Part shown: positions 11,325 through 54,409 of the stretch, in pieces
How the letters are laid out: each line of letters opens with the position of its first letter
How positions within the stretch are numbered: the first letter of the stretch is position 1
Assembly: GCF_036365525.1 (NCBI RefSeq)
Contig: NC_090402.1
Span: 8,707,079-8,771,078, forward strand
Direction of reading: 5' to 3'
Length of the DNA stretch: 64,000 nucleotides
Source of the DNA: Heterodontus francisci
Taxonomy: Eukaryota
Translations under genes and position numbers: made by a program
The notes under the pieces: model-generated
What the model was told of the DNA's origin: nothing
Database searches by the model: none
What the model saw: the letters and a program-made list of their open reading frames with translations, nothing else

Positions 11325-12395
11325 CCTTACACCCCTCCCTATCTCTGTAACCTCCCCCAGCCCCTACACCCCTCCCTATCTCTGTAACCTCTCCAGCCCC
11401 TGCAACCCTCCCTTTCTGTAACCTCCCCCAGCCCCTACAACCCTCCCTATCGCTGTAACCTCCTCCAGCCCCTACACCCCTCCCTATCTCTGTAACCTCT
11501 CCAGCCCCTGCAACCCTCCCTTTCTGTAACCTCCCCCAGCCCCTACAACCCTCCCTATCTCTGTAACCTCCCCCAGCCCCTACACCCCTCCCTATCTCTG
11601 TAACCTCCTCCAGCCCCTGCAACCCTCCCTTTCTGTAACCTCCCCCAGCCCCTACAACCCTCCCTATCGCTGTAACCTCCCCCAGCCCCTACAACCCTCC
11701 CTATCTCTGTAACCTCCCCCAGCCCCTACAACCCTCCCTATCTCTGTAACCTCCTCCAGCCCCTGCAACCCTCCCTTTCTGTAACCTCTCCCAGCCCCTA
11801 CAACCCTCCCTATCTCTGTAACCTCCTCCAGCCCCTACAACCCTCCCTATCGCTGTAACCTCCTCCAGCCCCTACAACCCTCCCTATCTCTGTAACCTCC
11901 TCCAGCCCCTGCAACCCTCCCTTTCTGTAACCTCCCCCAGCCCTTACAACCCTCCCTATCTCTGTAACCTCCCCCAGCCCCTACAACCCTCCCTATCTCT
12001 GTAACCTCCTCCAGCCCTACACCCCTCCCTATCTCCGTAACCTCCTGTAATCTCCTCCTGCCCCACAACCTTCCCTATCTCTGTAAGCTCCTCCAGCCCA
12101 ACAACCCTCCCTATCTCTGTAACCTCTTCCAGCCCTACACCCCTCCCTATCTCTGTAACCTCCTGTAATCTCCTCCTGCCCCACAACCTTCCCTATCTCT
12201 GTAAGCTCCTCCAGCCCAACAACCCTCCCTATCTCTGTAAGCTCCTCCGGCCCAACAACCCTCCCTATCTCTGTAACCTCCTCCAGCCCTACAACTCTCC
12301 CTATCTCTGTAACTTCCTCCATCCCCTACAACCCTCCCTATCTTTATAACCTCCTCCAGCCCTACAACCCTCCCTATCCCTGTAAGCTCCTCCGG
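11325..12395 (+). repeat. 35-37 bp C-rich minisatellite derived from the L2 ORF2 3' region
   Basis: About 29 units of CCAGCCCCTACAACCCTCCCTATCTCTGTAACCTCCT; single-copy counterpart in the L2 at about 22960-23005. Confidence 0.95.
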
Positions 12396-13200: not shown

Positions 13201-13528
13201 TGGAAAGTAGTTGTACGTCAGTGGAGAATGTCACACTACGGTTTGGATTGGAAGGGGAGAAGCTCCTCTATTGTGGGAGGCGCAGAGGCCTGCAAAAGAG
13301 AACCGGGCAGAGTGTAAAACCGGGTGACAATGTGCTATCGCCCAAAACAAGTTTCATCCCCTGCAAATTAATTCAGGCTGATAAATTAAGAACTTCCACT
13401 TGGGAGAGATACGATGAGCTAATGTCACCAATGGGGAGCTGCAGCCAGCAGCAATGTAGAAAGAAGCAAGGAAACTGGGCTAAAAATAACCCAAGTACCA
13501 GTAACATTTATGCCCTCAGATAATGAGA

Positions 13529-13547
13529 TTCCACCATCTAGTGGTGA
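13529..13547 (-). promoter_or_regulatory. CTCF-like motif
   Basis: Reverse complement TCACCACTAGATGGTGGAA versus CTCF core CCACYAGRKGGCR. Confidence 0.5.
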
Positions 13548-14564
13548 TCGTGAAAACTGTTCCTCTAAAGCAAAAAAACTGGACACTGCGAACGCTGGAA
13601 ATCTGACATCAAAACAGAAAACAAAGGGACTCCTGACAACACAGAGGCAAGCCGACATCATCAGAGCGCTCCAAGTTGCGTACATGTGCAAACGGTCTGC
13701 TGCTCTCAGTGAGATGCTGCGCATACGCAGCCTACGTCTTTCCAGGACTAATTGGCACATGCATGGGAAGACGTCATCAGCTACTCTTCCCCGCCCCATT
13801 GGCTGCTGTCCCCCCTCGGCCACTCGCTCCAGGCCTCGACGCTTTCTCTCCCTCCCCTCTCGTCCCCACCGGTCGCTGCCCCCGCTCTCCGGCCACTCGT
13901 TCCCCCCCCCCCCCCACCACCCAGCCGCTCGCTCCCAGCTCCCCCCCCGCCCACTCCAGCCGCTAGCTCTAGGCTGCGTCGCTTTCCCTCCTCTTGGCCA
14001 CTCACTCCTACGTCACTCCATCATCCCTCGCGGCCTGCCTTGCTTCTTCAGGCGGTGCGGTGAGGAACGATCGAACGTGGGAGCGAGTGGCTGAGAGGAG
14101 GGAAGTGGTGCAGCCTGGAGCTAGCTCCTGGTCGGGGGGGCGGGGTTAAGCAGGGAGCGAGAAGCTGGAGAGCAGGGTGGGGGGGGGGGGGGGTGGGAGG
14201 GGGAGAAATGTGGAGCAGGGAACAATCGGCCGAGGGGAGGGAAAGTGGGGGGAGGGAGCAGTGGCAAGATCTGGAATGAGTGTTAATGTGTGGACTGGGA
14301 GAATGGGTGACTACAAATGGAGGGGGGGGGGGGGGGACAGAAATTCACAGTTATTTCCTCCATAAACATCACAGTGTAAATGATGACTTTACCGACCATA
14401 GAAAGTTGCTTTACATTCCAAATTTCAATGGCAGTATCATACCAGAGGTCTGTCTTGTTTTTTGTGATGAATTGAGCAGCGCCATCTTTAATCCTGGCAG
14501 CTGCCTGAACGTTGCTGACAATGACGTTTCAGTGGAAGAGGCTGCATTTGCACATGTGCTAGTA

Positions 14565-15425: not shown

Positions 15426-15662
15426 TGTGGAGGGTCAGTACTGAGGGAGTGCTGCACTGTTGGAAAGGCAGTACTGAGGGAATGCTGCACTGTTGGAAGG
15501 GCAGTACTGAGGGAGTGCTAGACTATTGGAGGGGCAATACTGAGGCGACGTTGCACTGTTGGAGGGGCAGTACTGAGGGGACGTTGCACTGTTGGAGGGG
15601 CAGTACTGAAGGAGTGCTGCACTGTCGGCGGGTCAGTACTGAGGGAGCGCTGCACTGTCAGA
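15426..15662 (+). repeat. 33-bp tandem repeat (7 units) derived from a SacSINE1 internal hairpin
   Basis: agtactga at 15437, 15470, 15503, 15536 (variant), 15569, 15602, 15635. Confidence 0.95.
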
Positions 15663-28580: not shown

Positions 28581-30075
28581 TGTGGGCCATTGTACTCAGT
28601 GGCATGGGTTTTGCAGTTAGCAGCGAAGCAAGGGCGCTTACCACTGACCTCGAAGAAAGATGCGCTGAGAGATCTCACGATCTCTATGGTGAGAACTCTA
28701 ACACTCTCAATGTGCAACTGATTGTAGTGTTGTTTAATGGAGAGTCCCAGAATCTCACATCACAGAGTGATGTCATCAATCTATCCAAACAGCCAATCAC
28801 ATTAAAGAATTCTCCCAGACCGCCAACTCAGGAAATAAAAAACACTAAAATCAAATCATTTCACATTTTTTACAGAGAGTGGAATAAAGATTGGGACATA
28901 ATGGGGGATGAAGGTAGAAGCTGAAATATCATGAACAAACACTATAAAAAATTAAAATATTGAGTTTTTAAAAATCTAGTAATTAATCATAATGGAGACA
29001 TTTAATAACATTCCATAAATATAAAATTATATTTCCAGGGCCAGACTGGTTGCTCAGCAGTAGTTATTTCTCAGATCGCAGTTAGAAATGCAGTTACACT
29101 TCATTGAACAAGCCTCTAACACTGATATGAGAGCGGAAAAGGTCAGGTTCTTGCCAGGTTAACTGATTTCACCGATTGCCAGCCCTGGTTCACAGCACAG
29201 CCTGTGACATAGCAGTGAGTGACAGACTGCAACTTCAGGATTTCTGTGTTAATCTGCGCTTGTGCTAAATCCTAAAACTGTGGACAGTTTCAGAAGGGTA
29301 ATGGCGTTAAACTGCCATTCCACTGAAAGAAAAAAGAGGACACAAGGACAAAGTCTTTAGTCCAAATATTTCTCCTTGACTAGAAACTAGCAGGAGACAA
29401 AATCAAGGATTTAAGGAGTTCAAAGGCAAGAAATTACATTCCAAAGATCATTCACCTGCCAAAATAAAACATTTAATAGGTTCTAAAAATTCGCAGGCCT
29501 CAGTCATTTAATAGCATTTCGGAAAGAGAGACTAGTCTGGGAATATCATCCCCCAGCTTTCCTGTAGATAACCCATACTTCAGGGTCAACTACTTCTCCA
29601 ACAGCATCCGGACTCAGACATTATGGCCCCAATTTTAATTGCCTTCCTGCCTGGCAGAATCTGGTCAGGACTGCAGGGTGGGGTGGGGGGGGGGGGGGGG
29701 GGGGGTGGGGGGAGAGGTGGTGGGGGAGCTGGCAGTCAAAATAAGGGCAGTCACAAACCCCCTCTGATCCCACTGCCTTCTCGCCGTGTCTCGATCTGAA
29801 TCTGCTTTTTTTGAGCAGGCAAGCAGGCCACCTTTGGAAGGGAAGAAGGTTCCCACTATATAGCCCCAGATCACGGCCTGACACCCTCCCCATGATCATG
29901 GCCCGATTCCACCCCCGCCCCCCCTTCCCGCTGATCATGGCCAGATGCTCTCCCCCTAATTGTGGTCAATCCCCTCAGGTGGAGTTGGGGTAGGGTCTCC
30001 TAATGGGACATTATTTGTGTTATGGTATTTGTGGTGCTCTAAATATGTGGTCTAATACCCTGTGACACCGGTGCC

Positions 30076-31005
30076 ATTCATCGACAGGATTGCGGCTGCC
30101 TGCAACGAACTTGGCCTAACCATCAGCCTCAAGAAAACGAATATCATGGGACAGGACGTCGGAAATGCTCCATCCATCAATATCGGTGACCACGCTCTGG
30201 AAGTGGTTCGAAGGTTCACCTACCTAGGCTCAACTATCACCAGTAACCCCCTGTCTCTTGATGCAGAAATCAACAAGTGCATGGGAAAGGCGTCTGCTGC
30301 TATGTCCAGACTGGCCAAGAGGGTGTGGGAAAATGGTGCACTGACACAAAAGTCAGTGTATCAAGCCTGTGTCTTCAGTACCTTGCTCTACGGCAGCGAG
30401 GCCTGGACAACGTATGTCAGCCAAGAGCGATGTCTCAACCCATTCCATCTTTGCTGCCTCCGGAGAATCCTTGGCATCAGGTGGCAGGACCGTACCTCCA
30501 ACGCAGAAGTCCTTGAGGCGGCCAACATGCCCAGCATATACACCCGACTGAGCCAGCGGCGCCTGAGATGGCTTGGCCATGTGAGCTACATGGTAGATGG
30601 CAGGACCCCCAAGGACTCATTGTACAGCGAGCTTGTCACTGGTATCAGACCCACCGGCCGTCCATGTCTCCGCTATAAAGACGTCTGCAAACGCGACATG
30701 AAGTCCTGTGACATTGATCACAAGTCGTGGGAGCCAGTTGCCAGTGATCGCCAGAGCTGGCGGGCAACCATAAAGGCGGGGCTAAAGTGTGGCGAGATGA
30801 AGAGACTTAGCAGTTGGCAGGAAAAAAGACAGAAGCGCAAGGAGAGAGCCAACTGTGTAACAGCCCCGACAACCAATTTTATCTGCAGCACCTGTGGAAG
30901 AGTCTGTCACTCTAGAATTGGCCTTTATAGCCACTCCAGGCACTGCTTCACAAACCACTGACCACCTCCAGGCGCTTACCGATTGTCTCTCGAGACAGGG
31001 AGGCA
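30076..31005 (+). mobile_element. RTE-clade LINE, 5'-truncated, with an open 299-aa ORF2 remnant
   Basis: GLTISLKKTNIM, FTYLGSTI, STLLYGSEAWT, RRLRWLGHV, C-terminal CSTCGRVCHSRIGLYSHSRHC; GACACCGGTGCC repeated at 30064-30075 and 31022-31033 (TSD-like). Confidence 0.92.
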
Positions 31006-31139
31006 TGTTCTAGTTCTATAAGACACCGGTGCCCATTGATGAACTAAAAAAAAGGCCCCTATCTGATTCCAGGGTCACATCTGAAAACCTGTATTTGGAA
31101 TGAATGGAAAAAACCCATAAGCCAAGCTTCTCAATGACA

Positions 31140-31938
31140 TCCAATGCTCAATCATTGGCCAACGGTTATTGGATAACAAAGCTGTCACTCATTTAGACAC
31201 CGCCCCTTCCACGTCGCCATGATCTGATTGGCCAGATTCAATGACAAAAGAAAATCCGTTAAGAACTCAAATCCTATTGGTGGATGGTGCTGTCAATCTA
31301 TGTCCAGCCAACGCTCTCCCGCCTAGTGATAAACTATTGGCTAATTTAGCGCACACGCCCACCGAGATCCCCAATTCTAGTGGTCGATGCTGCTGTCAAT
31401 CTGATTCCCGCTCACGTTTCCCCACCCATGCACCGCGTGAGATATTATTGGCTGATACAACGCACACGCCCACGGAAACCACCCCCCCCCCACCAAATCT
31501 AATGGTGGCTGGTGCTGTCAATCTGAATCCCTCCCGCCCAGCTGCCCAACCGGCCGAGAGATTATTGGCTGATTCGGGCACGCGGTCGCAGAGATCTGCG
31601 CTCGGAGTGGTGGATGGAGCTGTCCATCTAAGCGCCGCCGTCCGCCTCCCACCCAACCCCCCGGGAGGTGAGATATTATTGGCTGACCCGGCGCACGCGG
31701 CCTCAGAGATCTGCGACTGGAGTGGTGGACAGCGCTGTCAATCTCAACTGTCCCCGTCTGCCATCATCCCGGGAGCGGAAGGCCGGGATCGTGAGCGGTT
31801 CCCGCCGGACGGCAGCGCACGCGAGACGTGATCGGTCAACCGGCGGCAGGGGGAAAAAAAAACCACCTTTTCTTTTAAAAGTTTAACCGTCAGTTCGGGG
31901 GCCGCTTTTCTCTTCAGTTTGCAGCTGGCCCCCCGGGA
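31140..31938 (+). promoter_or_regulatory. SLC25A25 distal CpG-island promoter and 5' UTR with a tandem TALE-decamer/CCAAT module array
   Basis: CpG-rich 31200-32260; CTGTCA(A/C)TC-type motifs at 31182, 31290, 31393, 31515, 31620 (variant), 31735; ATTGG at 31154, 31168, 31227, 31276, 31336, 31447, 31564, 31678. Confidence 0.85.
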
Positions 31939-32157
31939 ATGAAAGAACGGGCCGGCGCCTCACCCTCGTCCAGCGGCCTCTTGTGCGAGTGCGAGCCGGC
32001 TGACGGTCAGGGCCCGGCGGCCCGGCTGGAGCAAGAGCAGCGGCTGCACCTCCTCTTCCAGCAGCTGGATGTCAACCAGGACGGCGGGCTGTGCGTCAAC
32101 GACCTGGCGGCCGGCCTGCAGCGGCTCGGCGTCTACCGGACCGAGTCCGAGCTGAGG
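31939..32157 (+). CDS. SLC25A25: SCaMC-2 first coding exon, isoform b type (contains EF-hand 1)
   Basis: 73 codons ending LFQQLDVNQDGGLCVNDLAAGLQRLGVYRTESELR, matching recalled human isoform b LFQTLDVNRDGGLCVNDLAVGLRRLGLHRTEGELQ; AGG|GTGAGT phase-0 donor at 32158. Confidence 0.95.
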
Positions 32158-32319
32158 GTGAGTCCAGATATTTCCCTTCGTCAAACCGAGCGGAGGGCAG
32201 GCCTGGGGCCGTGGAGCGAGTGACAGGGGCGGCCCGCTGCTGTGGGCGAGGGGAAGCGACTTAAAATCTAGATCAACGCTTGAAATTTGGATCTAAGGTC
32301 ATCCAGTTGTGGCCAAAGC

Positions 32320-47602: not shown

Positions 47603-48617
47603 TCACTACTGCTGGGTACAGGTCTGTCACTGTATAACACTGGGTGACAGGTCTGTCACTGTATAACACTGGGGTACAGTACTGGTGGGTACAGGTCTGT
47701 CACTGTATAACACTGGGGTACAGTACTGCTGGGTACAGGTCTGTCACTGTATAACACTGGGGTACAGTACTGCTGGGTACAGGTCTGTCAATGTATAACA
47801 CTGGGGTACAGTACTGCTGGGTACAGGTCTGTCACTGTATAACACTGGGGTACAGTACTGCTGGGTACAGGTCTGTCACTGTATAACACTGGGGTACAGT
47901 ACTGCTGGGTACAGGTCTGTCAATGTATAACACTGGGGTACAGTACTGCTGGATACAGGTCTGTCACTGTATAACACTGGGGTACAGGTCTGTCACTGTA
48001 TAACACTGGGGTACAGGTCTGTCACTGTATAGCACTGGGGTACAGTACTGCTGGGTATAGGTCTGTCACTGTATCACACTGGGGTACAGTACTGGTGGGT
48101 ACAGGTCCATCACTGTATAACACTGGGCGACAGTACTGGTTGGTACAGGTCCGTCAATGTATAACACTGGGGTACAGTACTGGTGGGTACAGGTCCGTCA
48201 ATGTATAACACTGGGGTACAGTACTGGTGGGTACAGGTCTGTCAATGTATAACACTGGGGTACAGTACTGGTGGGTACAGGTCTGTCAATGTATAACACT
48301 GGGGTACAGTACTGCTGGGTACAGGTCTGTCAATGTATAACACTGGGGTACAGTACTGCTGGATACAGGTCTGTCACTGTATAACACTGGGGTACAGGTC
48401 TGTCACTGTATAACACTGGGGTACAGGTCCGTCACTATCACACTGGGGTACAGTACTGCTGGGTACAGGTCCATCACTGTATAACACTGGGGTACAGTAC
48501 TGCTGGGTACAGGTCCATCACTGTATAACACTGGGGTACAGTACTGGTGGGTACAGGTCTGTCAATGTATAACACTGGGGTACAGTACTGGTGGGTGCAG
48601 GTCTCTCAGTGTATAAG
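47603..48617. repeat. 44-bp minisatellite (about 24 units, with shorter deletion variants)
   Basis: GTCTGTCACTGTATAACACTGGGGTACAGTACTGCTGGGTACAG repeated. Confidence 0.97.
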
Positions 48618-53660: not shown

Positions 53661-54409
53661 CATCCTTAATATCTTTATATTGCAGCTGTGGGAATAGGCA
53701 AAATGATTTGGTTTCCATTTAATCATTTGTTAATATGTTGGCTCAGAATACCAGTTTTAAAAGGCATCAAAATCTATGTAAGGATAAGTAAGTATCACAG
53801 TGAAGGAGGAAGAGCTATTGCTGTTTTTGCTAACTGTGTATTAATTTAAACAAATTCAATTTCTCAGTTGCATTTTATATTGGTGATTGTATTAATGAGC
53901 TGTACAGTTTGGTTGAAGTAAAAGATTACTTTAATTATTCTCTATATACCATTGGTAAGCCGGGCAGTCCATCTGGGAAATTGCTTTGGATACTTTGCGA
54001 TTTTAATCTGTACCATGTGACTTCTCTTCTCAAGTACCCAATCATCATATTTCCTTGCCTCGGTAGCTTCTGTTCCTGCACATAAGTGATTGTCATTCAA
54101 ATTTACATCCATTGTAAAAATGCCTTTTTCAACTATCTGTTGGCAATTGATGCCAGTCATAGCTTCTCTGAATTTCTAACCGAAATTAATTGATACAAAG
54201 GAAGCCTGGGGGTGGGGGAGAGAGTTCAACAGCTTGTTAAAAATGCTATTAAAACCAGGAAGTTTAGAAATTAATTTTGGTATGAATAGATGATTACTTA
54301 ATGCATTCATGACCTTTCACTTTTTATTTTAAAAAAGGCATTAACCCATCTGAAATAAGCAGGTTAGCGCCTAGAGTAAAATACCAGGAGAGGAATGTCA
54401 TAGGACTGC

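Follow-up and report, generated by a model that had tools for sequence, protein, structure and literature searches.

The closest described system is the DECA-CCAAT element, GAnnGAC-11bp-CCAAT, which is bound by PBX/PREP and NF-Y with the N-terminus of Sp2 bridging the two (bioRxiv 10.64898/2026.02.16.706105). The spacing of 11 bp is also given as the optimum in PMC7793273, and spacings of 10-12 bp are tolerated in models; the bases contacted by NF-YA include CCAA, and NF-Y helps to hold the upstream border of promoters (bioRxiv 10.64898/2026.02.16.706105). The mouse Sp2 promoter bears five CCAAT boxes and three DECA-CCAAT pairs (same preprint), and about 70% of the top Sp2 sites have at least two CCAAT boxes. 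The mouse Prep1 consensus is tGAxtGaCag with a weak first T (PMC4395233), the NF-Y consensus is RRCCAATSR (PMC11802806), and an Sp/KLF-type motif CC(C/A)C(G/A)CCC is found near zebrafish DECA sites, only one of seven zebrafish DECA/NF-Y elements having driven a reporter in HEK293 (PMC6023610). The element, its spacing and its occurrence in multiples in one promoter are already known, as is the formation of sites by local duplication (PMC3188502, fly modules). Among the matches shown, in part, by a search of the open-access literature, there was no account of the array described below or of an alignable tandem DECA-CCAAT repeat; a search by name for slc25a25 in seven supplementary files of PMC6023610, and for Slc25a25 in two of PMC4694823, gave no match.

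The gene downstream of the array, Slc25a25, was searched by name in the supplementary tables of the mammalian occupancy studies. A Prep1 peak lies at -536 of mouse Slc25a25 (score 3100, 152-fold, among 3902 peaks; PMC4395233 Table S1), and the ratio of Slc25a25 expression in Prep1 knockout over wild-type ES cells is 0.84 (adjusted P = 1.2×10−6), which falls short of the authors' cut-off of 0.7 for regulation; the ratio for Naif1 is 1.16, not significant (PMC4395233 Table S2). Endogenous Sp2 is enriched 59-65-fold at mouse Slc25a25 (765 and 659 tags, which drop to 11 and 9 in the knockout), and the human SLC25A25/NAIF1 Sp2 peak is 36-fold and at most 500 bp from both starts (PMC3439921). Slc25a25 stands in row 38 among 761 listed for Flag-Sp2 and in row 105 among 717 listed for the Sp2 N-terminus only, and is absent among the 12 rows listed in the sheet for the zinc fingers only; the first sheet is ordered by tag count, and the same order is assumed for the others (PMC4368557). 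NF-Y occupancy at mouse Slc25a25 depends on Sp2 for two of its subunits: NF-YA falls about five-fold, from 3.30 normalised tags in wild type to 0.61 and 0.54 in Sp2 knockout, and NF-YC from 2.77 to 0.66, whereas NF-YB changes little (5.11 versus 3.98), and Sp1 and Sp3 are present as well (PMC4368557). The mammalian peaks lie 540-620 bp upstream of the 5'-most listed start, and NF-Y has a further peak at about -100 (PMC4368557, PMC3439921, PMC4395233). From this occupancy we infer that the mammalian Slc25a25 promoter would contain a DECA-CCAAT sequence. The 5'-most listed start of the mammalian gene, which is on the minus strand, presumably carries the EF-hand first exon, as in the shark.

The shark locus lies in a 64-kb stretch of Heterodontus francisci DNA (hereafter the window). 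The array is 195-785 bp upstream of the ATG in the first coding exon of SLC25A25 (SCaMC-2-B; 31939..32157, plus strand), which encodes residues 1-73 with an EF-hand and ends at a splice donor GT at 32158. The initial annotation had assigned the gene as SLC25A25, and a protein comparison bears this out, the exon product matching the first 73 residues of H. francisci SCaMC-2-B isoform X2 at 100% identity; the next matches are five other chondrichthyan proteins (72-82%), and the closest solved structure is SCaMC-1. No other exons of SCaMC-2-B were found within the window. By eye, a possible small intron in the 5' leader (31791-31924) can be made out from a GTGAG at 31791 that resembles a donor and, just 5' of the ATG, two CAG acceptors with a pyrimidine tract (about 31905-31924); one donor/acceptor pair would link a frame opening at 31223 in phase to the exon, likely a coincidence. 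A CpG island covers the array and the first exon (31201..32200), with an observed/expected ratio of 0.87-1.14 in 200-bp windows against 0.31 for the whole window, and the repeat units themselves have ratios of 0.71-1.06. By their position relative to the ATG and a CpG ratio of about 0.9, the modules are within a CpG island and probably promoter-proximal.

Upstream and outside the array, about 120 bp away, is a 5'-truncated LINE fragment on the plus strand (30064..31033, body 30076-31021), with a 12-bp direct repeat on either side (30064 and 31022). It has a 301-codon open frame without a Pfam match, no second copy of it was found in the window, and we take it to be RTE-like from its C-terminal CCHC finger. 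The duplication is clean and resembles a target site, which suggests that the insertion is fairly recent and bounds the promoter. Elsewhere in the window there are a CpG-rich patch at 13500-14100 (observed/expected 0.73) with overlapping long frames, two ATTGG boxes and no Pfam match, and minisatellite-like arrays at 11328-12393 (37-bp units), 15428-15658 (33-bp) and 47640-48616 (44-bp), the last containing CTGTCA hexamers in a layout unrelated to that of the promoter array. An Rfam scan of the window gave 0 matches.

All motifs that the initial annotation had listed are present: six decamers at 31182, 31290, 31393, 31515, 31620 and 31735 (periods of 108, 103, 122, 105 and 115 bp), six pentamers starting 14 bp upstream of them (ATTGG twice, AGTGG three times, AATGG once), and five second boxes, each ATTGGC, of which the last four are followed by GCACACGCCC or GCACGCGG. 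The core GAnnGAC is found on the minus strand in all six modules, exactly 11 bp from the pentamer, and no GAnnGAC/CCAAT match occurs in the array at any other spacing from 7 to 15. The claim of a TALE decamer and a CCAAT box at a known fixed distance agrees with the published 11-bp geometry in 6/6 modules, a gap of 9 bp after the decamer being the same as 11 bp after the core. The gap is kept, but its constancy says little by itself, as indels like those in the longer spacers would often miss an interval of only 9 bp, which is an estimate from interval lengths and not a computed test. The interval 31000-32000 holds 6 instances of GAnnGAC-N11-CCAAT with at most one pentamer mismatch, where 3000 dinucleotide shuffles give 0.03 on average (maximum 2), and 2 exact ones, where the shuffles give 0.002; because the six composites are duplicates and hence non-independent, this enrichment shows that the pattern is real, not that it had six separate origins. 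Away from the array, the 64 kb contain a single exact composite (53951-53973, minus strand, intronic and outside CpG islands), which is compatible with chance.

The modules score 10, 9, 9, 9, 8 and 9 of 10 on the full decamer consensus TGANTGACAG, and the first base is off consensus in five of them (AGAT for TGAT); because the first T is weak in the Prep1 consensus, AGATTGACAG fits. The initial annotation described a decamer/CCAAT module, but the linked pentamer is an intact CCAAT in modules 1 and 2 only; modules 3-6 have CCACT, CCATT, CCACT and CCACT. All four are altered at the fourth base, one of the listed bases contacted by NF-YA. On the NF-Y consensus RRCCAATSR the decamer-linked boxes reach only 7, 7, 7, 6, 6 and 6 of 9, whereas the second boxes reach 9, 8, 8, 8 and 8, and the box at 31154, at which the annotated span began although its motif list lacked it, reaches 9. 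The second boxes lie 45, 46, 54, 49 and 58 bp from the preceding decamer and 49, 43, 54, 42 and 43 bp from the next pentamer, four of the latter five distances being within the 30-50 nt typical of Sp2 sites. Judged by sequence, modules 1 and 2 would be canonical DECA-CCAAT members, and modules 3-6 would at best work like them.

Module 1 (31154..31232; this and all following units are on the minus strand) has the best-matching sites: the perfect decamer TGAGTGACAG at 31182-31191, CCAAT at 31168-31172 at the canonical 11 bp, 9/9 NF-Y boxes at 31154 and 31227, and a GC box at 31200. Unit 2 (31262..31362) has its decamer at 31290-31299, an intact CCAAT at 31276-31280 (11 bp), the second CCAAT at 31336-31340 and CACGCCC at 31354. 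In unit 3 (31363..31484) the decamer is at 31393-31402, CCACT at 31379, the second CCAAT at 31447-31451 and CACGCCC at 31465; the CACGCCC of both units fits the zebrafish Sp/KLF-type motif (PMC6023610). The motif downstream of the second box in units 4 and 5 is GCACGCGG, with GCACGCG at 31578 and 31693, respectively. Unit 4 (31485..31589) further has a decamer at 31515-31524, CCATT at 31501, a GC box at 31534 and a second CCAAT at 31564-31568, and unit 5 (31590..31704) a decamer at 31620-31629 (8/10, with GAnnGAC kept), CCACT at 31606 and a second CCAAT at 31678-31682. The last is a half unit (unit 6, 31705..31747), with a decamer at 31735-31744 and CCACT at 31721, without a second CCAAT; it is nearest to unit 5. 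Its sequence includes a near-palindrome GGACAG-CG-CTGTCA (31728-31741), two TALE half-sites back to back, which may be due to chance.

Aligned with each other, units 2-5 are 63-74% identical. With the motif letters removed, all six pairs among them are still alike (z = 3.6-12.3), as is the pair 5-6 (z = 7.3). Profiles built with one unit left out recover units 2-5 at E = 2×10−13 to 8×10−11 and half unit 6 at E = 1.9×10−5 over 31706-31747, and units 6 and 5 share 35 of 46 positions in the anchor block. A full-length sixth unit was rejected (5/5 comparisons with z ≤ 1.2); a GCACGCG at 31817 is a candidate remnant of its second half (z = 1.0, not significant). Module 1 is not recovered at E ≤ 5 by a profile built on modules 2-6 and, without its motif letters, shows no similarity to units 2-5 (z = −1.3 to 0.5); it shares with the repeat only the motifs and their order. 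A match of module 1 to a profile at E = 4×10−13 was rejected as circular, because module 1 was inside that profile. One short match, of 17 nt, joins module 1 to sequence that follows unit 6 (z = 5.2). The proposed six-fold tandem array thus stands as regards a duplication origin for modules 2-6, but not for module 1, which may be a far earlier copy whose spacers are saturated, or else a module of the same grammar that arose independently. What can be shown as a tandem array amounts to about 4.4 units, four complete ones and a half (31262-31747). Tandem Repeats Finder did not report it in the window because the units are only 63-74% alike, and nhmmer found no further unit copies in the 64 kb (best other match E = 0.29). 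Dating with the shark pedigree mutation rate of 7×10−10 per generation (PMC10587355) was rejected, as spacer distances of 0.46-0.70 would need several hundred million generations, which is not credible; the array is old or fast-evolving.

If the motifs are functional, they should change less than their spacers, as the initial annotation had proposed. We compared the positions defined in the papers only (five core bases and two pentamers, 15 columns) with the other columns of units 2-5, leaving out of both classes ten GCAC-box columns (7 invariant) and two AG columns. Among motif columns 14/15 are invariant, whereas 24/65 other ungapped columns are (P = 6×10−5, one-sided Fisher's exact test, unchanged under three MAFFT settings). 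Restricted to the ungapped blocks beside the motifs, which is meant to lessen misalignment bias, the comparison is 14/15 versus 15/40 neighbouring columns (P = 1.8×10−4), and the proposal is upheld. All columns of the decamer core (5/5) and of the second CCAAT (5/5) are invariant, and non-motif columns differ by 34-45% between units. When the invariant columns were tested for clustering without regard to the motifs, the result was nonsignificant (P about 0.15-0.18). These results suggest that purifying selection on the decamer cores and second CCAAT boxes is likely, not proven, as the motif test rests on four to five paralogous copies picked after the fact, with columns that are not independent of the unit tree.

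Several features of the array have parallels in the described systems. It is like the mouse Sp2 promoter in its GAnnGAC core, orientation, 11-bp spacing, and several composites with extra CCAAT boxes in one proximal promoter (bioRxiv 10.64898/2026.02.16.706105), and unlike it in having six decamers over about 560 bp, of which units 2-6 are recognisable 103-122-bp duplicates, and a degenerate linked CCAAT in four. The fly modules of PMC3188502 likewise have neighbouring sites born by local duplication and then diverged by point mutation; there the similarity is statistical and extends to about 50 bp, whereas the shark unit is a directly alignable 110-bp segment with multiple sites. Multiple CCAAT boxes of the same orientation are also seen in NF-Y promoters with tandem CCAAT and in LTRs with CCAAT repeats (PMC4368557, PMC4982600, PMC12065363); the shark array differs from these in having intact boxes every ~110 bp with mostly degenerate ones in between, and neither element ends nor dispersed copies in the window.

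The description as an unusual multi-module promoter has to be tempered in view of the multi-CCAAT Sp2 promoter, the Sp2 sites in general, and a second region of 12 boxes in the same window, which makes the layout less unusual than first claimed. This cluster (515-874, beside a CpG island at 1-750) has 11 ATTGG and 1 CCAAT, the first seven boxes being spaced by 37, 38, 38, 40, 40 and 39 bp and the rest by 24, 25, 43 and 11 bp. The density of CCAAT/ATTGG boxes per 600 bp is 12 at 501 and 10 at 31101, against a window mean of 1.7. The cluster contains no DECA-CCAAT composite and is probably the promoter of a minus-strand gene that leaves the window. The view of the repeat as a composite TALE/NF-Y/KLF unit also needs amending, as it left out Sp2, which accounts for the spacing.

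Taken together, the array is real and is probably functional, as a variant layout of the known DECA-CCAAT element. We put at about three in four the probability that it is a DECA-CCAAT-class proximal promoter of the 5'-most SLC25A25 first exon, with the unit multiplied by duplication and the sites kept by selection. PBX/PREP (TALE) dimers are predicted on the decamers and NF-Y on the CCAAT boxes, with Sp2 bridging TALE and NF-Y where the sites are 11 bp apart, as the published role of this geometry would imply, and Sp/KLF factors on the GC and CACGCCC boxes. Jointly these factors would hold the CpG island open and nucleosome-free, leading to broad basal transcription from a start site whose position is likewise predicted. 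Several rounds of head-to-tail duplication would have multiplied a segment of about 110 bp, [CCAAT-decamer ... CCAAT ... Sp/KLF box], the last of them presumably giving units 5 and 6; as the spacers drifted, selection would have preserved the core of each decamer and each second CCAAT box, and the decamer-linked CCAAT would have been weakened in four copies. Because of that weakening, modules 1 and 2 are probably full TALE/NF-Y/Sp2 sites, and modules 3-6 probably TALE sites with a strong NF-Y box 42-58 bp away.

The same observations could be explained if only modules 1 and 2 work and units 3-6, generated as a by-product of duplication in a CpG island, are decaying neutrally, their motif conservation being a residue of well-aligned blocks. 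The loss of the linked CCAAT in four of six modules, the nonsignificant motif-blind test, the invariance of 15/40 non-motif columns beside the motifs, and a redundancy of sites that makes single copies dispensable would all fit such decay. We consider it unlikely, as the decamer core and the second CCAAT are invariant at 5/5 columns each against the 34-45% difference elsewhere, the conservative test remains at P = 1.8×10−4, and units 3-6 are the closest to the exon. It is also conceivable that the array is the relic of a transposable element (an LTR, or the subterminal repeats of a DNA transposon) that brought NF-Y and TALE sites and was co-opted or not, given that LTRs with several CCAAT boxes are bound by NF-Y, which occupies human MER57 together with TALE factors (PMC12065363), that LTR12 has a repeated CCAAT spacing (PMC4982600), and that the window is rich in retroelements. 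But the nhmmer search gave no second copy within 64 kb, no inverted repeats flank the ends of the array among those listed, the TALE site of MER57 has a different geometry (PMC12065363), and the same factors occupy the promoter of the mammalian orthologue, which make this origin improbable.

All six composites point away from SLC25A25, and the mammalian region overlaps or is shared with Naif1/NAIF1, the human Sp2 peak being close to both starts (PMC3439921), so that the modules might mainly serve a divergent transcript or an enhancer, with the real SLC25A25 start elsewhere; the splice-like signals in the leader (31791; 31905-31924) would allow other 5' exon structures. There is no sign of Naif1 upstream in the shark window, and no NAIF1-like or other divergent coding gene was found within about 1 kb, where the LINE fragment lies directly upstream. 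No gene-type Pfam match was found in 84 of the 106 minus-strand frames of at least 55 aa upstream (window 500-31150), including all 47 between 15518 and 31009. NAIF1 would give a Myb-type Pfam match. The LINE fragment, the empty frames and a CpG island that reaches downstream over the exon and not upstream make this assignment marginally less probable even than a transposon relic, and a non-coding first exon of a divergent neighbour is possible upstream. A stop-free frame of 202 codons (31223-31831, plus strand), of a length attained in 3.6% of 2000 shuffles, might suggest that the repeat is protein-coding. This was rejected and has a negligible chance of being right: periods of 103, 122 and 115 are not multiples of three, which puts the copies in different frames, Pfam gave no match, and 1.84 billion representatives yielded only 3 weak unnamed matches (E = 5×10−5 to 2×10−4, 36-37% identity) and none at 10−10.

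Within the preferred reading, a selectively kept DECA-CCAAT-class promoter of SLC25A25, the finding concerns no new kind of element, and its effect on expression may be small. It is worth noting that the mammalian promoter of the same gene is occupied by the same factors. One may speculate further that DECA-CCAAT control of SLC25A25 is ancestral to jawed vertebrates, with the mouse Prep1/Sp2 site near -550 as the orthologue of module 1, that it was amplified long ago in sharks, that the copies with CCACT or CCATT placed exactly 11 bp away load NF-Y via Sp2, and that copy number tunes expression of the carrier among cartilaginous fishes. This extension is doubtful, if less so than neutral decay of units 3-6; if true, the array would be a natural allelic series showing TALE/Sp2 loading NF-Y on non-CCAAT pentamers. 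The locus extends, by sequence, the TALE/NF-Y/Sp2 promoter grammar of mouse, human and zebrafish to a cartilaginous fish, and it offers an alignable case in which a whole multi-site promoter unit would have been duplicated, with selection pruning it afterwards; its paralogous copies may serve as a probe set for the CCAAT degeneracy that the Sp2 bridge tolerates.
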